From the NCBI GenBank assembly GCA_963575745.1, contig CAUYUJ010000188.1, positions 62,001 through 117,046 of the forward strand: a DNA stretch of 55,046 nt, in the 5' to 3' direction. Numbering within the stretch: the first letter of the stretch is position 1; every line of letters starts with the position of its first letter. The position numbers and the translations under genes were made by a program. This DNA comes from Prorocentrum cordatum. Taxonomy: Eukaryota. A model generated the notes under the pieces. It did no database searches. It worked only from the letters and a program-made list of their open reading frames with translations, and was not told the origin of the DNA. Of this stretch, positions 5,461 through 39,365 are shown one piece after another.

Positions 5461-7953
5461 AAAAATGCAAGCGAAAACCCAACTCCGGGGAAACCTGTGT
5501 GTACAAAAAAACAAAACGCGGGGGGGGGGGTCGAGCATTTTCAAACCGTCATCCGGGGAAGAGGGAGAGTAGTTTCATATTAACTGTAGAGGAGGAGGAG
5601 GAGGAGGAGGAGGAGGAGTTACCTTCATCAACCGTTAGCAGCAGGAGGAGGGCGGCGACGACGATGGCGGCAGCGGCGGCGGCGGCGAACGACGACCACG
5701 AAAACGGCGGCGGCGACGACAAGAAGCGAGGCCCCAACTTCGAGCCAAACTGAGAGGGGGCGCGCTCCTTCCCCCGGAGGCCACTGGGGTGTCCGAAAGC
5801 CAAGCCTTGATTGGACACGTCGGGAGAAAGGGGGGCCACAAACGGTGTGGTGACCACGCCGTGTGGAATCGGTAGGGATGCGGGGTCACCGTTCGGTTTT
5901 GGGACTTGAATCGTTCTCCCAGGACGCCTCGAGCGACTGGGGCCTCCAGGGTCCCCAAACCGTGTGGGGACGGGCGGTGCGGTGAGGTCTTTGGGGGGGT
6001 CCGAAGTCACCGCGCGGTCTGTCGCCAAACGGCTGTGGGACCCACGAGGTCTGCAGGTGGTCGCAGAGGTCAGCCGCTACGCGCTGCGGAGGGGGAAGGG
6101 GCCTAGGGCGGGGGGGCGATGTCCAGATCAAGCACTGCAGAGAAGGCCTCGCCGAACGAGCAGACGGCGGCGGAAGGCAAAACGGGGGCAGGCTCGTCGC
6201 CGGGAGGCCGGCGGAGTCCAGAGTCTGCGACAGCTGGCGGATATGAAAGATCCGCCGATCTGGCGTGTGCGTTTCAAAGCGCCGCAGCTACATCCCCCAG
6301 CCTTAGCTTCAGCTCTGCTCGGGGGGGGGGCCAGGGGAGCTTCGCCGAGGAAAGGGGGGGAGAGCTGCTTCGCCTATGCTCCGCCTGTGCTCCGCTTGTG
6401 CTCCGAATGTGCTCCATTTTCTGGGCGGGGCGGGGACACAGAAAAATCAGCCAAATTCCCACCAAATCATTGGTTTTCTATACGCTTTTGTAAGATTGGG
6501 GCGCCTCGTTCTTTTCCGCCTCCCGACTGCACACGACGACCCCAGAGGCCCCCAAGATCGCCCCAGGGGCCCCAAGATGGCCCCATGATGGCCCAAGAGG
6601 CTCCTTAGACGGCCCCAAGAGGATCCCAAGACAGGCCCATAGGCCTCCAAGACGGCCAAGATGGCCTCCCGGGCGGCCCTGAAGCGCCCCCAGATGGCTT
6701 CCAGACGGCGCAGCAAGGCGCCCAAGAGGGCTTCCGACGGCGTCCGACAGATCAGGAACGCTCAAAGACGGCCAAAGAGGCTCCCAAGAAGCCCCCAAAA
6801 GGCTCAAAGATCCACTCAAGAGGCCTCCTCCTACCACGGCCCCACGAGGGCCCCAAGACGGCCCCATAGGCATCCAAGCGAACCCGAGCACCATCGGGAG
6901 CGCCCCGGATCGGCGGCACTGGCCCAAGGGCAACTACAATCGCTCCCAAGAGATGACAACGTTGCGGCGTTCACGCAACAACGCGGATTTCGGACACCCT
7001 GAACCAAAAAACGAATTGATCTCTTGGGGCGCAACTTTTATTTCCGCCGCCTTCCGCCAACCTTCCGCAGGCGGAGGCGGCCCGGTTTCACTTCCGCCGC
7101 CCTTCAGCCGGCTTCCGCCGCGGAAGGGATGACAATGCTTCGATCCTCGAAGGCAAGGCCCTGGTTGGAGCGCCTCACATGAAGGGCCGCTTTTGTTTTT
7201 CGGGGGGGGGACAGAGCCCCATGTGGCAAAGCACCCTCTGATGGAAGCGGCCCAGGGGCCCAAACCCCGCGGCGCAGGCCTCCAAAAGTGGCGGCCACAT
7301 CGCCCCCCCGAGAAGCCAGAAAGAGGCCCTGCGCAGGCGGACTCGCGACTCGACTTGGCAGGGCGTGGGCCCTGCCAAACCTGGAGTGCTCAAGAGAGCA
7401 TGCACTCTCAGTCGCCCCCCCGCCCCTGACGTAAAAAAAACACTAAGCCTCGAGAGAGAGAGAGAGAGACCAGCTCTCTGAAGGCGACCACCCCCGCCCC
7501 CAGCGCCCCTGGAAAGGCATCCGCGGACCAGGCCCGAGGCACACGCTGCCTCGAACACCACCCAGCGCGCCCCGCCTCAGCGGACGAAAATAGAGGGAAG
7601 AGAACTATGCACATGCACCGATTCTGGCCAGGCCCATCCTGAGCCCAGGATCGGTGCATACGCCCTCCTACCTTGGCCAGGACGGCATATGCACCGATCC
7701 TGGGTCAAGGATGGGCCTTGCCAGGATCAGTGCATGTGCATAGTTCTCTTCGCCCGAGAAAAGACCCACCGATCAGCCCCAGCTCGGACCTCGGGACCAC
7801 GGGCTCGGCTGGTGAGACGCGGCACGCTGGAGCCACCGCCCCTTCCACAGCTGGCAAAGGCATCCGCGGACCAGGCCCGAGGCACACGCTGCCTCGAACA
7901 CCACCCAGCGCGCCCCGCCTCAGCGGACGAAAAGACCCACCGATCAGCCCCAA

Positions 7954-8036
7954 CTCGGACCGGTGAGACGCGGGAGAGGCTCCGCGGGGCCGGGGCGGGG
8001 CTCCGCGGAGCCTCTCCCGCGTCTCACCGGTCCGAG
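7954..8036. repeat. Perfect 34-bp inverted repeat with 15-nt spacer
   Basis: 7954-7987 is the exact reverse complement of 8003-8036. Confidence 0.9.
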
Positions 8037-8554
8037 GACAAAGATGATGACCTCTTCGCCTGAGGAGGCGGCGATCGCCTTGAACATCGAGGACGACAAG
8101 GAGAAAGAGAAGGAAGAGGAAGAGGCAGAGGAGGAGGAGGAGGAGGAGGAGGAGGAGGAGGAGGAGGAGGGCTCGGCTGGTGAGACGCGGCACGCTGGAG
8201 CCACCGCCCCTTCCACAGCTGGCTCCGGCTCCCCTGCCCTCGCCCTCCTGCCACCTCCCTCGCCCAACCCCTCCCCCTCCTCGCGATCATTACCTTCCCC
8301 CCTCTTCCCTCCTCATCCGTCCGCCTCCACCGTTCCCATCTCCTCCTCCTCCTCCTCCTCCTCCTCCTCCTCCTCCTCCTTTTCCCCTCATCTGAATCCT
8401 CCTCCTGATCCTCCACTCTTGTTCCTTATGAATGAATCTTCCCTGTCGCACCCTGCGGCCAGTCGGAAGGGCGGGCTGGGCGTTTCGCCTGAGACTTCCT
8501 TACCTATACGACCACCCTTCGGGTGAAAAGGAGGTTCGGGGGGGAGGAACCAAC

Positions 8555-9971: not shown

Positions 9972-11620
9972 GGGACACCGACGGGACACCGGCGGGACAC
10001 CGGCGGGACACCGCGCCCCACCGGCCCCTGGAAAGGAAACATTTGGTCCGGCCGCGCCTCAGCCGCAGGCTTGACACCGGCGGGACACCGCGCCCCACCG
10101 GCCCCCGGAAAGGAAACATTTGGTCCGGCCGCGCCTCAGCCGGAGGAGACTTTCTTCTCGCCCGCCCACGCAATTATGCCTCGCCCGCACGCACGACACG
10201 CACGAACACGAAACCGAAACCGATTTCCCGGTAGGGGGGCTTTCCGTTCCACTTCGATCTCACCCCCTCACCTCCGACCACGTATGAGCCTGAAGCTTAG
10301 AAATTGGAAAAAGTTTCATAAATGGAGGGCGGGTCGCTTCCAAAATGTGGCTCTCACTTTGGCGCCGCGCACACCTTCTTACAAAATTTGCGAACGCTTC
10401 ACGGATTGAAGGCGGGCCGTTTTCAAAATATGGCTCTCGCCTCAGCGCCGCGCGCATTCTTTTCAAACATTTGCAAGAGCTTCACGGATTGAAGGCGGGC
10501 GGTTTTGAAAATGTGGTTACCGCCTAAGCGCCGAGCAGATTGTTTTCTTATACATATAAAGAAAAACGCAAGCGCTTCACGAATTGAAAACAATTCCTTT
10601 TCAAAACGGGGCTCTCGCTTCAGCGACGCGTGCACTCGTTGTAAAATATACAACTGTTTCACTGAATGTCATGGTTAACGTGTCAGAAACATTGTTCTGG
10701 AACGACTCATGATTGCAAGTGCGCAACAGTTCGGTGGATTCGCGGTGTAGAAGTCCCACGGGTTGTGCTATGGCACGATTCAGGGAGCGCCAGGACGCAA
10801 CAATCACGTGGTCTCCTGCAAATGGTGATTTGGCACGTTTCGGGATTTCCATACGACTGTTCCCCAATGGAGGAATTCCCTCAGCGGAAGGGAGCCCTCG
10901 TGTAGGTGTTTATTAAGAGGGAACTTGGAAGGAGGGTGGATCCCAACATCGTTGGTGAACCTTGGGTTCGCACTGGTCCTCCTCTTCCTCTTCCGCTCCT
11001 CCCATACCACCTATCTCTCTCCCACCTCTGTCATCCGCCTCCTTCCTCCCCTTTCCTCTTCTTCGCATCATACTAACCCTCACCATCCCCATCCTCACCT
11101 TCATCCTCCTTACCATCAGCATTCTCTCGTTAAAGGCTTAACGACTTCTGCCGTCCTTCGACTCGCGCTGGAAGGGCCGCGAGTTGCTTCACCTTTCCTC
11201 GGAGATCTTTGGATTTACCCGGATTTGTTTCGATTTGCCTGGATTTATCTGGATTTACCTCGATTTATCTGCATTTACCTGGATTTTTCTGGCTCGCTCC
11301 CCACAAGTCGATCGGCGAAAAGTCGACAAGCCCTTAGGGATTCTCCGATCCATAATCAGCATCATCGCCATCCTCCTCCTCATCATCACCATCCTCGTCG
11401 TCATCCGCATCACATAAACATCCCCCCCCCCCGAACTTCCTCACCGGCCCCTCGCCCTCTGCCCAAGAGGTCGCCGAGCCCCCCTCAAGCCTCCAAAATA
11501 CGGACGACAACAGGCTGGCAACGCGGCGTTCCAAAACGGGCGCGAGGCTCTGCTCTGAGGGCGTTGGGGCCTCTGTAAGAACGGTTTTTTGAAGGCAGAT
11601 CTGCCTTCAAAGAATGGTCT

Positions 11621-11680
11621 ACTCTGTAAGAACGGTTTTTTGAAGGCAGATCTGCCTTCAAAAAACCGTTCTTACAGAGT
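11621..11680. repeat. Perfect 60-bp loopless palindrome, preceded by a truncated copy (11572-11611)
   Basis: ACTCTGTAAGAACGGTTTTTTGAAGGCAGA|TCTGCCTTCAAAAAACCGTTCTTACAGAGT. Confidence 0.95.
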
Positions 11681-16256: not shown

Positions 16257-16288
<32 letters not shown>

Positions 16289-16480
16289 ACTACGACGACG
16301 AGGGGGGCGACGATATGCGGGGCCACTGGGACCCCCCCGACGACGACGACGACGACGACGACTACGACGACGACGACGACAACGACGACGACGACGACGA
16401 GGGGGGCGACGATATGCAGGACCACTGGAATCCCCGACGATAGGCGGGGCCACTGGACCCCCCCCCGACGACGACGCCGA

Positions 16481-16518
<38 letters not shown>

Positions 16519-16590
16519 GCGACGAGGGGGGCGACGACATGCGGGACCACTGGGGTCCCCGACGATACGCGGGACCACTGGAATCCCCCC

Positions 16591-16653
<63 letters not shown>

Positions 16654-16893
16654 CAACTCTCCCATGTGTTTTTCCCGTGCGGCCCCCCCTGATGAGTCAA
16701 ACGCCCAGGGGGGTGTCAATATTTGCGTTGGAGCCCTCGCCTCGGCGCGTTGGCGGTGAATTCGCGGCAAGGGCCCCAACGCGAAAAGCTTGAAATCACA
16801 AATGGTTTTTTGACTCATCAGAGGGGGCCGCACGGGAAAAAACATATGGAATTCACGCCGCGGGCGCTTCCCCCGTCGGTTTGCCTCGCAGAG
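15972..16893 (+). mobile_element. 922-nt repeat-rich insertion with GT-AG ends inside the transposase-like frame
   Basis: The junctions are CCAG|GTGGAG...CGCAGAG|GCTGG. Removal fuses ORF 15647 and ORF 16881 in frame (RRVVHVPDPG-WWVYDNRNLL). The insert contains (GAC)n tracts and a long hairpin. Confidence 0.6.
16662..16849. repeat. Foldback/MITE-like element with ~40-bp inverted repeats
   Basis: 16662-16701 (CCATGTGTTTTTCCCGTGCGGCCCCCCCTGATGAGTCAAA) pairs with 16809-16849. There is a second inner stem, GCGTTGGAGCCCT/AGGGCCCCAACGC. Confidence 0.85.
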
Positions 16894-19111: not shown

Positions 19112-19470
19112 ACTCACGCGCGCCAGCCCAGCACTTCGCCAGCTGCACGCGCGTCGTGGGTAGCACTGCGAAGCATAACAGATGAGCGTCCACCTATCCT
19201 TTATTCCTGCCCTCTCTTGCTCCCCTCCTTCTCCTCCTCAACGCCGCCCTCCCCTCCTCCTCTCCTCCGCCTCTCTGCGTCTTACTCTGGTCACGATGCC
19301 CCCTCTTCTCCCCCCTCCCCTCCCCCGCTCCCTCGGGCCCTTGAGAGCGCGCGCTGCAGCTGGGCCCCAGGGGCCACGACTCAACCTCGACAGACAGAGA
19401 GATCGGCGAGAAGCTGACGGGCGCATGGGGACATGGAGGAACAAGGAGGAGAGAAGGGAGAAGCTTTCCA

Positions 19471-19492
19471 CGCGTAGCCATTTAGGCTCAAG
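19471..19492 (+). other. Relict dinoflagellate spliced leader (DinoSL)
   Basis: CGCGTAGCCATTTAGGCTCAAG matches DCCGTAGCCATTTTGGCTCAAG at 19 of the last 20 nt. The first downstream ATG is at 19544. Confidence 0.92.
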
Positions 19493-19543
19493 TGTTGTGG
19501 CTTGCCATCTTCCAGCGAGGCCCTTTCGGTCAGGTGCTGAGGC

Positions 19544-22113
19544 ATGTCGGAAGCTGGGCTGGAGAGCCTCGACGGAGACGGCGCCATCAGTTGCGTGGGC
19601 CTTCGCCAGTGCCACGTGTGCTTGGCCCCAGGGCATTTGGCTTCACTCGGCCGCCTGCTGGAACGCTGTGAGATCGAGGAAGCGCAACGCCAAGGCTTCT
19701 CCCCAGTTGCAGCAGCAGGACGACAAGGACATGATCAACGAGCCCGAGAAGTGGCGAGGTAACGTCACGCCGTTCTTGAGCACCGACTCCTCGAGCAGGG
19801 CTCAAGCTCGGGCGGCCGTCCGCGACCAAGTGAATGTCACGGAGACCATGCAAGTCGACAGTGAGATGCAGCTCGATGATCAGCACATTCTGACTCACAC
19901 CCGTTACAAGAACTACAGGAAGTGGTGGGACGACGTCGGGTCAGATACGGCCTACGAGGACTTCGACGAAGAGCACGAGAAGCAGAAGGGCAGGTACGAC
20001 ACTACGGACAAGCACTGGAACAAGGTCGCGAGGGTAAAGGCCGAGGGCGACGCAATGGTGAGGAAGGGCAAGGGGGTCACACACAAACGGGGCCAGCGCA
20101 CTACTACTCCGACGGATGGCCACGACGGCAACGCCGACAGCGACCGCCCGAGGCGCCGCATCAGGCTCGGTGCCGACTCCGATGCGGCCGACAGCGCTGC
20201 TGGGGGGTCGCTTCAGTCCACCTTCCGCCCGAGGCCATGCTCCCGCAGTTTCTCGTCTGGTGGAGCTGCAGGACACGCGCGCTGATGCAGATGAGGAGGA
20301 GCCCGAGCCTAAGATGCAACCTGCGGCAAGCCCACCTGATAAGGTCAAGAAGGAGAAGGTTCCAACGCCATCGACAGCGAGCTTGGAGTTCATCAACAAG
20401 AAGGAGCAGCTGCTGGTGGACTGGGAGAAGCGCTTGGACAAGATTGCGGGCTCCAAGGGGATCGCGACCACGATGGCGCAGTGCCGAGTGGACATCAGCA
20501 GGGCCGTCAAAGGCGACGCCCGGGGGTGCGACGACGCCGACGACGACGACGGCGAGGGAATTTCTGCCCCCACGAGGTGGGCAGAAATTCCATCAGAAGA
20601 ACACGACGACGACGACGACGACGACGAGTGAGTCTCCGCCCCGGCTGGGTTCGCACCCCGGGGCGTCGCCTTCGAAGGCGAGTTGCAACCAGATGAGCTA
20701 CCTGATGGCCACGAGGACCTCGAGCATAAGATCGAGGCGCTGAAGACCGAGGTCAAGGGCTTGATCGATAAGAGCAAGAACGTTCGCCGCGCCGAGCTGG
20801 AGGCGCTGGAGGGCAAGAAGAACAAGCTGCACGGGAAGCTGAGTGCAGTGGAAGTCACCATCTCTGAGGTGGTGTCAGTCACGACGCAGAAGAAGGGGAA
20901 GGCAGTCACCCAGCAGCGCAAGGCTTACATGAACAGACGATGGCAGATCACGCAGATCGTAACCAAACTCCTGAACGGCACCTTTTCCGAGAAGCACGGG
21001 AAGTTGTTGGCGGGTTTGCTGGTCGATGTCGTGTTCACGGCCAACGTCGGGGACACGCATCTGGCCAACACAGACGCGAAGGGCGACCCAGTTCAGCAGG
21101 CGAAGATCTTCGCGCCGAAGTGCGTGTGCTTCTCCGTCGACCCCAGCCCTGAGGAGTTCGCCTGCTCGCACGTCGTGCACTGGACGGGTGCGGTCGACTC
21201 GCCTTCCAAGGCCATCTTCGACACCAACAAGGACGTGATCAGCACCAAGCTTGAGACGTTCGAGAGCACCATGACGGAGAACGACAAGTGGGCAGGGGCA
21301 TGTGGCACGTGCGGTGATGGGTTCGTCCTGGAGGGGGCCTCGATGTACGGCACCACGCTGGAGGACATCGACATGAGTGGCTCGAAGCCTTTGATCGTGA
21401 GCGTTCGTGAGGGCCACCGTGGCAGTGCACCAGCTTGCGCGCCGTTGGCAGGGCTCGCATGCGTCATCAAACCGATCGGTGACCAACGGATCTTCGTCCA
21501 CGGGGTCTCCATGGAGCCGCTCTTGCAGACGGGCATCGCGCTGGCGGACTTCGACTCGTTCTCGAACACCGCTGCGGGCGTCGAGTTCATGAAGGCGCAC
21601 TCGTTCGCGGTCTCTGCCAAGCCCGACGAGATGGTCTACTTGCCGCCAGCGTGCCTCTACCACGTCATCGCCATGACGGCCAACAACAAGAAGACGAAGA
21701 CAGAGAAGGAGGTTGCTCACATTCTCCACTTGCATGTGTGGGTCAAGAGCTGGCACGGATTCTCGGATAATCTCAAGAACGCGATTGTCGCGCTGAACGG
21801 CTCGACACTCCAGCAGAAGAGGGGCCAGCAGATGTGGGAGGAGCGCCTCACGTGGCCCCACAAGATCCTCGAGTGTGATGCTGGTGCGATTTCTCAGGCG
21901 GCCCCCCGCCCAGAGCTTGGTGCAACGACGATGGGAACAGCGCCTTCGCGCTGCGGTCGTGGGAGAGCTCGGCGGGACCGCCTTGAAAACCGCTCGTGCC
22001 GATATCGGAGTGCCGACGCAGCTCCGCCGACGGCAGCGCGCCCCCCCCGCCGCAGTGTCGGGGGGAAGGAGGAGGGTGAGGAGGAGAGGAAAAACGAGGA
22101 GGAGCACGAATAG
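19544..22113 (+). pseudogene. SL-relict-preceded gene: N-terminal Cys/His finger-like motif, coiled coil, unknown C-terminal domain; two frameshifts and one Introner-like intron
   Basis: ATG 19544 (MSEAGLES...QCHVCLAP) shifts near 19630 into GIWLHSAACWNAVRS, then shifts again near 20220 into the 20116 frame. That frame joins ORF 20683 after removal of 20513-20677. GC3 coding bias is strong by eye. The 3' end beyond ~21900 is doubtful. Confidence 0.7.
20513..20677 (+). mobile_element. Introner-like element: 165-nt GC-AG intron with 22-bp TIRs
   Basis: The junctions are AAAG|GCGACGCC...TTCGAAG|GCGAG. The TIRs are 20510-20531 and 20651-20672 (21/22). AAGGCGA is directly repeated at 20510 and 20675. 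An internal in-frame stop lies at 20629-20631. Confidence 0.85.
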
Positions 22114-22309
22114 GAGGCGGGGGAGGAGGGTGGAGGAGGGAGGGGAGAACGAGGAGGAACGGCAGGAGGAGGAGGAGGGGGAGGAGAAGCGAGGAGGATG
22201 AGGAATGATATAAAAAATGAGTGAGGAGGAGGAGGAGCTCCTCCCTCCTCCTCCCTCTTCTTCCTCCTCCTTCTCTCCTCCCCCCCCCTCCTCCTCTTGC
22301 CCCTCCAGA

Positions 22310-23078
<769 letters not shown>

Positions 23079-23143
23079 GACAAGTGGGCGGACCAGGGTC
23101 CGTCCGCGAGGCGCACTGCGGTGCGACAACTCGCCATGCACTA

Positions 23144-23946: not shown

Positions 23947-26900
23947 TCACAGAATAGAGTCAGAGTGAGTGTTTGTACGCATGTGTAGCAGGTGTGAACA
24001 ACAGACACTTGTCTTTTCCACCGATGTTGCCGTCCAGGGGGCAGGCGGGAGGTCAGCAGGGACAGGCTCCTCCGGGATGTCATGGAGGGGTTCCAGGGCA
24101 GTCCCGGGGAAGGGGCGCGGCGACTGGTCGAGGCGCCGCATCAGTTTCTGCGTGCTGCCTGACAGCCGAAGCCCTGGGTCTTTGCGAACGCGAGTCACAT
24201 CGGAGCGGCTCCAACCGACGGTGAGACCGCCGGTGAACTGGACCACGACGCGGTCGCCAGACAAGTCGATGGTTGTGCCGATGTATCCACGCAGAGGGCT
24301 GGTCGGTGCGGTGATCTCGACCTGTACCCCGAGGAAGAGGCCGTCGTCGTCACCGTCATCGCGTGAGCCACCGAGGCCTTCGTCGTGGCCAGCCGTGTTG
24401 TCCGTCTGATCGCGGCTGCTGGCGGCAGGCAGCGAGGCCGACTTGCAGAGTGCCGCCGCTGAGTCGTCAGGCCGCCGTGCCGCCAGACTGCTGCAACTTG
24501 TGTACGCTGCGGGGGCCGGCTGGGGGTCCTGGATTGGCGCCCTCGTGAGTATGCCTGTACTGGTGGGCGGCACCTCGGCGCGCAGCGGAGGTGCTGGGAC
24601 GGTCAAGCTGGAACCGCGGAGGTGGGCAGTGTCACCAGTAGGCAGCGTGACGGTCCAGAGGCCTGGGTACTCCCTGGACGGCCCTCGTACGATGCCTCGG
24701 AGGCCGTTGATGGGGTTGTGGACCTGGCCTTTTACGACAACCTCGGTGCCGGCGTGGAGCCGCGGTGGAATCCGAGCTGCCAAGCGACGGTTGACTGCTC
24801 GGAGGTAACCGATGGTGGCTGGTTGTGGTCCGAGGTAGCGCTCGAGGTGCTCCCGTACAGTCGCAGTGCTAGTGCTGGGAGTGCTAGTGCTAACACGCGG
24901 GATAGCGAGGGAGCCAGGATCCAGGGCAGGCGTGTGAGCATGTGAGACGGCCGAGGTTGGCCCCGCTGCCATGCTACCAGGTTGTGGCGGGGAGGTCACC
25001 CCTGGGCTCGAGGCAGCGTGGGGACCGATGACAGAAATGGCAGGCGTAGTGCCATGCGGGGGGGCTGAAGCCGCCCCCGCTGGCGTGCTACCAGGTTTTG
25101 GCGGGAGGGTCGACTCGAGGCTTGAGGCCATGTGGGGGCCGATGACAGGAATGGCAGGCGTGGTGCCATGCGGGGGGGCTGAAGCCGCCCCCGCTGGCGT
25201 GCTCCCAGGTTTTGGTAGGGAGGTCGGCTCGAGGCTCGAGGCAGTGTGGGGGCTGATGCCAGGGCGGCCCTGGGCGGCCGCCTGGTGGCCTAGAGGGCGT
25301 CTGCGGTCGACGTCGCCGCCGCACTGTCGGCGTCGGCGCCGCGCTGTAGCTGCGCTCCGTCGCCGCCACTCGTCGCGGATGCCGATGGAGAAGTAGTACA
25401 TGCCGTACGTGGCGCACAAGGTGGCCCACGTGGACAATGACACCACGTTGTACCACTCGATGACCTCCAACCACACACGCTCCACGAACGCTGCCGTGTA
25501 GGCCGACGTGGGTGCCACCTTTGGCGCCGCCGCGGACGACTCAGGGCGTGCTGAATCTGGCAGGGTTGGCGTGAGAGTAGTCGTCGGCGATGACGTCTCG
25601 GCTGCGCTCGGTGCCGGTGTTGGTGCTGGTGTCAACGTTGGTGCCCGCGTAGGCGTGGGCGCGGGAGCTGCCGCTGGCAGTGCTGGTGTCAAAGCTATGG
25701 GCGATGCTGCCATGGATGCGAGCGCCGATGCAGACGGCGGAGTTGGCGTAGATGCTGGCTGCAACACTGGCGTGGGTACCGGCGTAGTCGTCGATGTTGT
25801 CGTCAATGCAGACAGTGCCGCAGACGTAAAAATCGACGAGGCAGGCGTGTCCTGACATGACATGGCGGTCCCACTAGCGTAGGGTGCGCCTGAAGACGGC
25901 ACCCGCGCCAGCGGCCCTAAGCGAGGCGTCGGGACAGTGAATGGTTGAGGGCTCGCCGAGGCTGGCGTCGATGCGGTCGTCGGTGCTGACGTCGCTGTTT
26001 GGGTCGGTGGGGCCGTAGGTGACAACGTGGCGGACATGATACGGCGTGGTACGGCGGCCCCAGTAGCCGTGGGTGTGCCTGATGGTGTCGATCTCGTCGT
26101 CAATGCCGCTGTCGGTGCCGACGATACTGAGGCCGATCCTGTCGTCAATGCTGGCGTCGGTGCGGACGTGGGCACGGGAGCCATGGCCGTGTATGCCACC
26201 GTGGATGTAGTCATGAGTGCTATCGTGGATACCGCTGTGAAGGCCGTTTGGGGGACTGCCGTAGGTGCCACCGTGGGTGGCAACGTTGGTGCCGCCGCCG
26301 GCGAGTCTGCCACTGCTGACGTCGAAGGCGGTCGCCCGAAAACTGTCGCTGCCGATGCGGACGTCCCAGCTGCCGTCCGTGGTGGCGTCGATGTGGTCGT
26401 CGGCGCAGATAGTGACACAGACGATACGGGCGACGAGGCGGACGTGGCATGACATGACATGGCGGCCCCGCTAGCGGAGAGTGCGCCTGAAGGCTGCACT
26501 CCCGCCCGCGGCCATGGACGAGGCGTCAGAGCAGTGACTGGCTGAAGACTCATCGAGGCTGGCCTCGATGCTGCCGTCGGTGCTGTCGTTGATGTGGACG
26601 TGGGCGCCTCAATGGATGCGGTGGTCGGCGGTGCTAGCCTAGGGACACCCAGGGTCGTCGGCGGGGTGGGATAAATAATAGTGGTTGGTGCCGCTGGCGG
26701 TGCTGGCATAGGAGCTGTCATCGGTGCTGGTTTCGCTGGAGACGCCGGAGCTGGCGTCGATGCGGCCTGCAACTCTGGCGTAGGTAACGGCGTAGGCGCA
26801 GGCATGGGTGTTGACGCTGGCGGTGCTGTCGTAGGGGCTGGCGTCGGTGCTGGCCTCGATACGGACGTCGGAGCTGGCGTCGAAGCTGGCTGCAACTCTG

Positions 26901-27926
26901 AGAGACGATGATGCCGAGGAGAGGTCTGTAGGTCACCAGACTTCGGCGGGCCTGAAGGCGCCGCCGAGCGAGTGGCAATACAGGTAGCGCAGGAGTGGCT
27001 GATTGTGGTACTGACGTCCGTCGGAGTCTGTGATGCTAGCGGTGCTGCCGTCAGAGCCGTCCTCGCCGCCGTCAATGCTGCCGTCGGGGTCAGCGAGACT
27101 GTGGTCGTATATGCATGCATCATCGATAGATCGGCGACTGCCGTCGGTAGGAGCGTCGGTGCTGACCTCGGCGCCGGCGCCGGTAATGAGTCGTCAAGGT
27201 CGTCGTGGTCGTCATCGTCTCCTCCTCCTCCTGCGGGGCGGGGTGAGGGAGGAGGCGAGGGTGGTGCCGAATCCGTACCACTCGCTGGCGTCGATGCTGA
27301 CTGCAGTGCCGTCGTCAGAGCTGGCGTCGATGCTGTCTGCGGACCGACGGTGCCGAGGACGATGCCGAAGGTGGAGCCAAGGCCGTACCCGAAGTTCAGC
27401 AAGATAATGCCGATGAAGATGAGAGCGGTGCCTACGTTGCCGCGGGAGCGCTCTCGGGGGGAGGTTGGGGGCCGACTGCTTGTCACGCACGGCGCGACGA
27501 CGGCAGGCGTGGGAACAGCCCGACCGCACTCAGCACCGTCACCCTCAGCAGTCGGGAGCCCGACCCCCCCCTGGATACCTGGCCGTACCGAGGTGTGCAG
27601 GTGCTGGACGGAGTCGTCTGTGTTGGCGTCGGTGCCTGGTAAGTGGGCGCGGAGGTCGGCGCGGTATGCGCGCAGCTCGGCGCGCAGGTGAAACACGTCA
27701 TGCCCAAGTATACGTAGATCTTCGTGAAGATCCGCACGCGGCACGTGTGGGGCGTGTCCAGGTGGTACTGGGAGGTCGCGCCCGTGCAGGACGGGTACGC
27801 GGAAGACAAGGTCCTGGTGCCTGTGTACAGTAACATGGCCAGGTAGCTCAGGTAATACAGCATGGTGAGACGTGAAGGTGCGGTGGCGGCCTGGCGCAGA
27901 CAGGGGGGCCATGGCGGCGGTCGCAC
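23947..27926 (-). CDS. Large intronless Pro/Thr/Ala/Ser-rich (mucin-like) membrane protein with two C-terminal KOW/SH3-like segments; probable 5' frameshift
   Basis: The 1321-aa open frame is not built from microsatellite. Hydrophobic segments are ALIFIGIILLNFGYGLGSTFGIVLG and WATLCATYGMYYFSIGI. The beta-barrel-like segments are AGTEVVVKGQVHNPINGLRGIVRG and LGVQVEITAPTSPLRGYIGTTIDLSGDRVVVQF. Overlapping frame 27483-27926 supplies a signal-like start (MLYYLSYLAMLLY) and PT-rich sequence. Confidence 0.6.
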
Positions 27927-28899
27927 TGAGGAGAGGTGACGCGAATCAGTAGGGTCCTGGGGGGACCCCTCCGGTCTCGCGAGGCCTGGGAGACTGACTC
28001 CGAGGCGGGGCGTTTCGCGTCGCGGCTGCGGTCTGAGTGCTGGGCACTCTCGAGCCGAGACTAGCGAGAGGGAGAGAGAGAGAGCGAGCTAGATATTATA
28101 TAACGGGTCAGAGAGATGTAGGGGAAAAGAGACAGAGACAGAGAGAGGGAGAGAGAGAGAGGGATGATAGATACAGAGAGATAGAGAGAGAGAGAGAGAG
28201 CAGGAGAGAGAGAGAGAGATAGAGAGTTAGATATTATAGAACGAGCCAGAGAGATGTAGGGACGGGGGCACGAGACAGAGAAACCAGGAGAGATAAACAT
28301 TGAGAAACAGAGAGACACAGAGAGAGAGGGAGGGACAGCGAGAGCCCCCGCCGCCCCGCCGCGACGTGGGGGGCGCCTGCTGGATCGGCGCCAGGACGCC
28401 CGCCGCAGGGTCGGGGGGAAGGAGGAGGAGGAGGGGAAGGTAGGAGGAGTGCGAATAGGATTTGGAGGAGGAGGAGGATGAAGGAGGGAGGAAAGAAGGA
28501 GGAGGAGGGGCAGGAGGAGGAGGAGGAGGAGGAGAAGCGAGGAGGATAAGGAATGATGTAAAAAAGCGGATGATGAGGAGGAGAATGAGAGCTCCTCCCT
28601 CCTCCTCCTCCCTACTCCTCATCCTCTTGGGCGTGAGGAACCGCAAAACGAGGGGCGTGAGGAACTTGAGCGGCAGGCACTCCTCCTCTTCCTCCTCCTC
28701 CCTCCCCCCTCTTCTTCCTCCTCCTCCTCTCCTCCTCCTCTCCTCCTCCTCCTCCTCCTCCTCCTCCTTCTCCTCCTCCTCCTCCTCCTCCTCCTCCTCC
28801 TCCTCCTCCTCCTCCTCCTAGCCATTGCTCCCGTTTACCGAAATTCCGGCTGCTTGCGCTAGCGTTTCGTTTCCGAATTTCGAAGTTCATTTTGACGGG

Positions 28900-38110: not shown

Positions 38111-38297
38111 CCCAGAGATCCGATGTCGTGATTTGTTCCATGCGGGGCCCCCAAAAGTCTCGACCCGTGCCCCAGGACCGGCTCTTCCTCCCGAGCCTCG
38201 TTTTTGGAACGGTCCCCGGGCACGGCGAGGACCCCTGGAGATCCGAACACAGCGAAAACCCTCCGCTTTGATTCTTTCAACACGTCGGATCTCTGGG
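38111..38297. mobile_element. MITE family B (~187 bp, 13-bp TIR CCCAGAGATCCGA)
   Basis: CCCAGAGATCCGA...TCGGATCTCTGGG. Further copies are at 38786-38971 (inverted), ~38997-39179 (diverged), 39180-39365 and 41663-41852. Confidence 0.82.
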
Positions 38298-38437
38298 CAT
38301 GCCTGCCCCCCACCCATCGTGGCTCCTGACCTCACCCCGGCGAGGGGGCGCGGGAGGCGCAGGGGGCGCAGGGGGCGCTCGCCACCTGGACCTCCCCCCA
38401 TGGAGGCCTCCTAGACGGGGTCGCGGGATCGCGCCGC

Positions 38438-38560
38438 ATCGGCGATGCATCGGCGATGCACTGGCGATGCATCGGCGATGCACTGGCGATGCATCGGCGA
38501 CGTCCGCGTGAAGCAAATCGGGCCCCACGTCGAGCCCCATCACGGCGATGCATCGGAGAT
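38438..38560. repeat. 11-bp repeat ATCGGCGATGC downstream of the RPN5 stop
   Basis: Direct inspection. Confidence 0.8.
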
Positions 38561-38711
38561 GCGGCGCGATCCTCCGGCCCCAATCTGCTCCGACCCCATC
38601 TAGGAGGCCCAGGCCCCACCCCCGCGGAAGAGAGGCAACGCCTTCCTATGCCCGCTGCGCGCCGCTGGCGCGCCGGGAAGGGGGGGGGTGCAGAGCTGCG
38701 GGCTTCTCCGC

Positions 38712-38759
38712 TCATTTCTTGGGCTTCAGCTTCGAGCGCGCGGCGTGGATCATCTGCTC
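38712..38759 (-). CDS. RPN5: RPN5/PSMD12 terminal exon (EQMIHAARSKLKPKK-stop)
   Basis: It follows a pyrimidine tract and an AG acceptor (ccttcctcgtggAG|GAGCAGATGATCCAC). Joining in phase 0 gives HLIQK-EQMIH, which matches the family C-terminal pattern (human HLIAKEEMIH). The total is 458 aa, the expected size. Confidence 0.88.
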   Translation of the reverse strand, partial: EQMIHAARSKLKPKK

Positions 38760-38785
38760 CTCCACGAGGAAGGGGAGGAGGAGGA

Positions 38786-39365
38786 CCCAGAGGTCCGACG
38801 TGTTGAAAAAATCAAAACGGAGGGCTTTCGCTGTGTTCGGATCTCTAGGGGCCCTCGCCGGGCCCGGGGACCGTCCAAAATCGAGGCTCAGGATGAAAAA
38901 CCGGTCCTGGGGCACGGGTCGAGACTTCCCGGCACCCCGCATCGAAAAAAACACGAAATCGGATCTCTGGGTCCACGAGGAAGCGGATGAGGAGGACCCA
39001 AAGATCCGACGCTCAAACAAAAGTTGGAGCGGCGGGATGTCGGCCGTTTTCGGCAGGCCCCCGGGGCCATTGCCGGGCCTCGGGAGCGTGAAAAAAACGA
39101 CTCGGAACGAAAAACTGGCCCTGGGAAGTGGTCTGGACCTCCGGGGCCCACGCATCGAAAAAATTCGAGCGCGGCCAGACCCAGAGATCCGATGTCGTGT
39201 TTTTTTCGATACGGGGTCCCCAGAATGAAGTCTCGTCCCCTTCCCCAGGACCGGTTCTTCATCCTGAGTCGTTGTTTGACGGTCCTGGAAACCGGCGAGG
39301 GCCCCCAGAGGCCGAAAAATGCGAAAAAGCCCCGTCTTGATTTTTTCAATGCGTTGGATTTCTGG
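38786..39365. mobile_element. Cluster of three family-B MITE copies at the 3' end of the RPN5 intron
   Basis: Repeated CCCA(G/A)AG(A/G)TCCGA termini, and internal similarity to 38111-38297 in both orientations. Confidence 0.75.

Follow-up and report, generated by a model that had tools for sequence, protein, structure and literature searches.

A gene copy at 19544-21897 (forward strand) of a 55,046-nucleotide stretch of the Prorocentrum cordatum genome (assembly GCA_963575745.1, contig CAUYUJ010000188.1, positions 62,001 to 117,046; hereafter the window) is interrupted by a short hairpin-forming insertion. We hold, with slightly better than even confidence, that this is what remains of a small DNA transposon, one of the introner element or miniature inverted-repeat transposable element (MITE) kind, which would have inserted in the ancestor of this gene's subfamily and then been copied at the DNA level. 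Judged by the sequences compared here, the insertion was inherited by all close copies, predates the DNA-level duplication of the family and is not newly arrived. It is probably introner-like, and as such an ordinary case of a kind already reported in P. cordatum. A preliminary description of this DNA had presented it as an introner "caught in the act", which is not supported, as the same element occupies the same site in contigs from two sequencing runs (X1 and X2) and in two predicted peptides (P0010 and P0011).

The insertion is bounded by two 29-nt inverted-repeat arms (20503-20531 and 20651-20679, 90% complementary; all features of the element lie on the forward strand) with a spacer of 119 nt between them. 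They include the terminal inverted repeats (TIRs) of 22 nt that were originally described (20510-20531 and 20651-20672), and the 21/22 complementarity claimed for these was borne out. The arms' 20-nt core, which has one mismatch, occurs at two places only in the 55-kb window, against 0.02 expected, and none of 100 shuffles contained two matches. Inwards from the left arm follow a GAC/GCC triplet run detected by repeat finding (20529-20552), an internal hairpin with 16-nt arms that are 94% complementary (20554-20594), a second GAC run (20603-20628), which is two units shorter in the paralogues and aligns with six gap letters in the X2 contig, and an in-frame TGA (20629-20631), at which P0010 and P0011 both end. 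The predicted RNA fold of 20500-20685 (186 nt) has an energy of -102.7 kcal/mol versus -73.5 ± 4.5 in 200 shuffles (z = -6.5; 0/200 as good). The insertion bears no gene; its first 38 codons form an open stretch in the host frame that includes runs of Asp, and neither the 20-nt core of the arms nor the internal 16-nt hairpin is derived from visible flanking sequence. From this anatomy we infer a transposon origin.

A 14-nt direct repeat (20503-20516 and 20668-20681, 12/14 matching) lies over the two boundaries, and its right copy sits within a perfect 16-nt palindrome (20666-20681) that can be read directly from the sequence. The duplicated AAGGCGA noted in the preliminary description is part of a real repeat, longer than was stated, but the palindrome makes it identical, letter for letter, with the outer part of the inverted repeat, and for the same reason the true ends of the element cannot be fixed from this single copy. 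Any target duplication between 2 and 14 nt long that is centred on TCGA can be accommodated at the cost of one to three mismatches. Together, the inserted DNA and a single copy of the direct repeat measure 165 nt.

To establish who carries the insertion, four sequencing runs (X1 to X4) were compared with 19400-22200; all consist of contigs of unrecorded library type, so they are silent on expression. In X1 a 2525-nt contig spans 19400-20567 and a 1505-nt contig spans 20538-22048, the only break falling in the GAC run, and in X2 a 396-nt contig spans 20298-20699 unbroken. These contigs contain the element together with 20 nt and 2 nt that are missing from the window copy (after 19629 and after 20275, respectively), and hence represent intact paralogues. 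Window and paralogue contigs show 67 differences, of which the best-supported 40 are listed; statements on listed differences refer to these, and the 27 others could add more. Within the element, the listed differences of the contigs from the window are 20521 C>T, 20522 G>C, 20641 C>T, 20660 G>A and the six gap letters, and none falls in the TGA at 20629-20631 in either X1 or X2. The predicted peptides P0010 (from a JGI contig of 1023 nt) and P0011 (a EukProt record labelled Pyramimonas sp. CCMP1952) read through the upstream exon and on through the left arm to this same stop. As an aside on provenance that concerns P0008, P0009, P0011, P0182 and P0183, peptides in a EukProt record under the Pyramimonas sp. 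CCMP1952 label fall into clusters of 90% or higher with P. cordatum proteins from two subfamilies, and the same NCBI sequences are also labelled Polarella glacialis; the source labels may be mixed.

Further afield, the insert is absent from all 67 other site-covering rows of a 72-row family alignment. Where the protein P0004 has 14 residues between its R327 and P342 columns, these rows have 4-11, and none has 52-58 extra residues; a 15-row family alignment shows the same insert-free pattern. Presence in the close paralogues and absence from the distant homologues together indicate that the insertion entered the ancestor of this subfamily. Of the introner reading first proposed, a lineage-specific insertion with introner anatomy is supported, and the recent gain it implied is not. 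Paralogues with an empty site, for which a search had been suggested, were not found at close range: every close copy sampled (X1, X2, P0010 and P0011) carries the insertion, and the proposed empty-site motif matched the window only at the right junction itself, with two mismatches.

The host is one copy of a multi-copy gene family without assigned function. A HMMER search returned 442 cluster representatives at E ≤ 0.001, mostly of 650-800 aa and mostly from environmental assemblies with contigs of about 2.7-3 kb, with one from MMETSP. The closest protein cluster consists of four P. cordatum gene models of 731-739 aa, which share 93% identity with the window translation downstream of the element, and the G+C content of the window (about 0.6) is in keeping with the 59.7% given for the P. 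cordatum genome in the accessible part of Dougan et al. 2023 (PMC10666404). A Pfam scan of the host protein found no family at its cut-off, a profile search against solved structures gave coiled-coil matches only, at host-protein positions 290-450, and a language-model search hinted at JmjC proteins (0.86, on 137-148 shared features) but fell short of its own reliability marks. Proteins of the family start with a stretch rich in Cys and His, followed by a coiled-coil linker and then by a C-terminal domain in which G540, R582, G592, G619, G634, P656, G658 and R723 are nearly invariant. The element is positioned at the start of the coiled-coil linker.

In the window this gene is a pseudogene, with two frameshifting deletions and a lost stop. 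Owing to the missing 20 nt and 2 nt it can be read only across three frames, and CAG stands at 21895-21897 where the paralogue proteins end; its translation differs from P0004 at 44 of 724 aligned residues. The frame that enters from 20287 crosses the left arm and ends at the TGA of the element; past that codon it is once more open, over 20632-22113.

Upstream, the dinoflagellate spliced-leader relict mentioned in the preliminary description occupies 19472-19492, which places it 52 nt from the start codon at 19544; it matches 19/21 positions of the consensus for the 22-nt leader, and 0/100 shuffles did as well. No difference is listed for the relict in the paralogue contig. Ahead of it, over 19400-19471, the X1 contig still follows the window, two differences being listed there, and then extends for another 1335 nt. 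The copies have therefore multiplied as DNA, relict included. At the 3' end of the gene there is no A-run beyond ATATAAAAAATG at 22208-22219.

The relict had been taken to mean that the intron was gained after retroposition, and this inference is not safe. In the portion of Song et al. 2017 available to us (PMC5585692), the retrogenes of two Symbiodinium genomes have about the same number of introns as other genes (3.74 vs 4.17 and 16.74 vs 17.1), and parental introns are kept in some of them, so that a relict by itself does not date an intron. The absence of the insert from distant homologues is, on the alignments used, the stronger argument for a gain. The window gene resembles the relict-bearing retrogenes of that study, as far as they are described there, in its 19/21 relict shortly before the start codon, but differs from them in that its sampled copies multiplied together with their upstream flank, a DNA duplication after any retroposition, and in that it has no visible 3' poly(A) relict.

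Because the TGA was brought in by the insertion, a full-length protein needs the insertion removed from the RNA, and two intervals are candidates for this. The first, 20513-20677 (165 nt, phase 1), was the intron originally proposed: its GC donor (20513-20514) lies in the left TIR and its AG acceptor (20676-20677) past the right TIR, followed by G, and its removal keeps the frame and deletes the TGA, all as claimed. The paralogue contigs show no listed difference at 20513-20514 or 20676-20678. It is the only G[T/C/A]...AG pair within the direct repeat, and this location is its sole special trait among the possible splice pairs. The second, 20506-20661 (156 nt), is the interval missing from the four annotated paralogue proteins, all of which read ISRA, then GVAFEG, then ELQ; it starts with GT and ends with GG in the window and AG in the paralogue contigs. 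GVAFEG is encoded by the outer half of the right arm, which is thus exonic in all four models. Both intervals are candidate introns.

The annotated acceptor owes its AG, followed by G, to the G>A difference at 20660 in X1 and X2, where the window keeps GG. In the pairing of the arms 20660 faces 20522 and 20661 faces 20521, and perfect pairing needs C and C on the left with G and G on the right; the right side of the window fits, and the A of the paralogues is a transition at a CpG. The window G would accordingly represent the older state and the annotated acceptor the derived one. Linker lengths were also compared: removal of 20513-20677 leaves a linker of 11 residues, at the top of the homologue range of 4-11, whilst the annotated product has 14 and falls outside it, and the commonest length in homologues with the DLP motif is 8, which equals P0004 minus GVAFEG.

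In the sequence of events that we favour, a small hairpin-forming transposon with inverted ends would have entered the gene of the subfamily ancestor at the coiled-coil linker, and gene, relict, insertion and upstream flank would then have been duplicated as DNA, a step that both the window copy and the paralogue contigs bear out. The copy in the window has decayed through its two frameshifting deletions and the loss of its stop. The direct repeat provides the GC...AG|G pair at 20513-20677, which would remove the insertion exactly, whereas the paralogue annotations use instead the GT...AG|G pair at 20506-20661, whose acceptor depends on the G>A change at CpG 20660 that is missing in the window.

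The closest known parallels are the dinoflagellate introner elements of Farhat et al. 2021 (PMC7789003) and Dougan et al. 2023, the latter from the same species. In the sections of these papers that we could consult, the search pattern for such elements requires inverted repeats 8-20 nt long, together with direct repeats of 3-5 nt, at most 30 nt from the intron ends, and their signatures are given for 2.4% of P. cordatum introns (PMC10666404). The element here shares with them an inverted repeat at either end of the putative intron, a short direct repeat over the exon/intron boundaries (the GCGA of the intron start recurs at the start of the next exon), a predicted hairpin that joins the boundaries and a non-coding nature. 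It differs in its longer arms (20-29 nt) and direct repeat (up to 14 nt), both beyond that pattern, and in that its status as an intron comes from gene models. The GC...AG then G of 20513-20677 fits the splice rules of P. cordatum, for which the same excerpt of PMC10666404 gives GC donors at 51.4% and AGG acceptors at 79.7%.

A second parallel is provided by the introner-like elements of Symbiodinium and Polarella glacialis, which according to the accessible text of Roy et al. (bioRxiv 10.1101/2020.10.14.339549) recruit splice sites from target duplications of the form GHNN or AGGH, a motif that gives the 5' and/or the 3' site, with G plus A, C or T after the acceptor. Splice sites derived from a target duplication would be common to both, and AG|GC, found in the present repeat, also occurs in the patterns of their classes 14 and 13. 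Those elements, however, belong to families that number hundreds to thousands of similar copies and whose target duplication has a fixed length of 4, 5 or 8 nt, whereas here no second copy turned up, in tests that are each weak, and the length of the duplication is not fixable.

Several observations weigh against our reading, some bearing on the origin of the element and others, taken up in the next paragraph, on its splicing. The palindromic right junction leaves no clean split into terminal inverted repeat and target duplication, and by the homologue lengths both VKG and GVAFEG may have been absent before the insertion. Further copies of the element were not found, in tests that are each weak: the rest of the 55-kb window holds no second copy, the peptide of the element occurs in no other protein, longer proteins included, the X1 depth of the right-arm bin (20622-20715) is not above that of the single paralogue contig, and in the bin that takes in the left arm's first 18 nt (20434-20527) it reaches 24.1 against 23.4 for the contig, only 0.7 above, the remainder of that arm falling in a repeat-swamped bin (20528-20621). 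The missing second copy in the window and protein searches, like the missing clean target duplication, also suits an origin without a transposon, in which a break in the linker was repaired by a templated fold-back insertion that copied adjacent coding sequence in reverse, with GAC triplets gained or expanded. The perfect 16-nt palindrome of the right junction, the retention of the outer half of the right arm as coding GVAFEG in all four models and a GAC-rich minisatellite 4 kb away (16280-16650) point the same way. We nevertheless consider such a repair unlikely, if a serious competitor: the linker lengths make GVAFEG look inserted, since the modal length in DLP-motif homologues is reached without those six residues, the arm core and internal hairpin have no visible flanking source, and the anatomy matches the kind reported, in the part of PMC10666404 consulted, for P. 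cordatum introns. That the 55 codons are instead a coding, acidic, low-complexity insertion whose TGA is a late mutation of the pseudogene is highly improbable; the 38 open codons and their Asp runs would agree with it, but the TGA stands at the same place in P0010 and P0011, shows no listed X1 or X2 difference, and none of the 67 homologue rows has such an insert.

On splicing, no contig in X1-X4 skips either 20506-20661 or 20513-20677, and P0010 and P0011 keep the element up to its stop. Counting G[T/C/A]...AG intervals with starts at 20440-20628 and ends at 20632-20760, in multiples of three and leaving an open frame, gives 294 that restore the frame near the stop, so that a frame-restoring pair, or a gene model bridging the stop, is expected by chance. 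Among the 34 coding differences listed between the window and the X1 contigs (within the best 40 of 67), 29 are nonsynonymous and 5 synonymous, with synonymous to nonsynonymous counts of 2:15 upstream of the element and 3:14 downstream; 29 or more of 34 has P = 0.11 under neutrality (75% expected nonsynonymous) and P = 0.0055 under strong constraint in one lineage (64%), and the listed differences are thus compatible with neutrality and a poor fit to strong constraint in one of the two lineages. All of this favours a history in which the insertion was never spliced, truncated the protein in the subfamily ancestor and left a subfamily of decaying duplicates, the intron existing only in gene models that bridge the stop. 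We give this an appreciable, if minority, credence; it concerns splicing only and is compatible with a transposon origin. Against it, all four annotated models remove the same interval, and the P. cordatum annotation pipeline gives transcript evidence the highest weight according to the available part of PMC10666404, although this junction itself may or may not have had such support; about 400 codons are open downstream in four paralogues, an argument weakened by their close likeness; P0010 and P0011 may derive from RNA or DNA; and the difference counts rest on the best 40 of 67.

A stepwise intronisation recorded by the copies, with the GC...AG pair from the target duplication as the only usable one at first (the window state) and a second acceptor arising later by the CpG transition at 20660 in the intact paralogues, is rather improbable. 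In such a history the new AG|G at 20660 would pair with the GT at 20506, shifting the donor by 7 nt and the acceptor by 16 nt, and the protein would from then on carry six residues from the terminal repeat of the transposon. The reading first put forward, that an active introner newly created a GC-AG intron in this retrocopy after retroposition, spliced to RAVKG-ELQPDEL, we regard as improbable. It can draw on the GC...AG|G pair within the direct repeat, which removes exactly 165 nt, on arms that match slightly better in the window (19/20) than in the paralogue (18/20), on the apparently older state of the window at 20660 and on the product linker, which at 11 residues lies within the range of the homologues where the annotated 14 does not. 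However, the insertion is also in the paralogue contigs and peptides and so is neither recent nor specific to this copy, splicing would restore no protein in a gene with two frameshifts and a lost stop, no spliced sequence appears among the X1-X4 contigs, and the relict is compatible with an inherited intron, given what is accessible of PMC5585692.

If the element belongs to a mobile family, the transposon reading would make it a dated example of an introner-type insertion into a gene that was once copied via RNA and then duplicated as DNA, and the acceptor difference between its copies could reveal how splice sites become established once an insertion has occurred. Were stepwise intronisation true, a single young intron would be seen defined in two ways, one after the other, among the paralogues of a family. 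As it stands, the case adds one more to a phenomenon already counted genome-wide in P. cordatum, and it carries a caution: under the loose splice rules of dinoflagellates, a frame-restoring GC-AG pair is no evidence of an intron.

A scan of metagenomes with the arm pattern yielded 119 loci, each with a single match save for one tandem pair and none with an inverted pair; apart from the pattern itself, blastn detected no resemblance to either the gene or the element, and we rejected these loci as chance matches in GC-rich DNA. The internal hairpin had 0 matches in viral contigs, a weak test. Candidate small hairpin elements are common in the window, which speaks for the transposon reading: it holds nine inverted-repeat pairs of high complexity (arms of 20 nt or more, no more than one mismatch and a spacer of 30-600 nt), compared with none in each of five block shuffles. 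The eight pairs other than the one studied (760-899, 7595-7753, 7953-8037, 11570-11680, 16679-16831, 38232-38851, 38887-39268 and 38949-39202) may be small hairpin or MITE-like elements, and none shares the arms of the studied element. The minisatellite at 16280-16650, built of units of about 120 nt with GAC runs and a G/C-rich spacer, is the sole other match in the window to the interior of the element, through the GAC/GCC runs only. Directly after it, at 16660-16840, lie about 180 nt between a pair of inverted repeats, each some 33 nt long (TTTTTCCCGTGCGGCCCCCCCTGATGAGTCAAA and its complement). On the 3' side of the gene, a long purine-rich simple-repeat tract (22060-23100; GAG, then GA) contains spurious open reading frames of hundreds of codons on both strands, and the paralogue contigs end where this tract begins. 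Beyond it, on the reverse strand, an open frame of 1332 codons (23947-27945) is rich in Pro, Thr, Ala and Ser.

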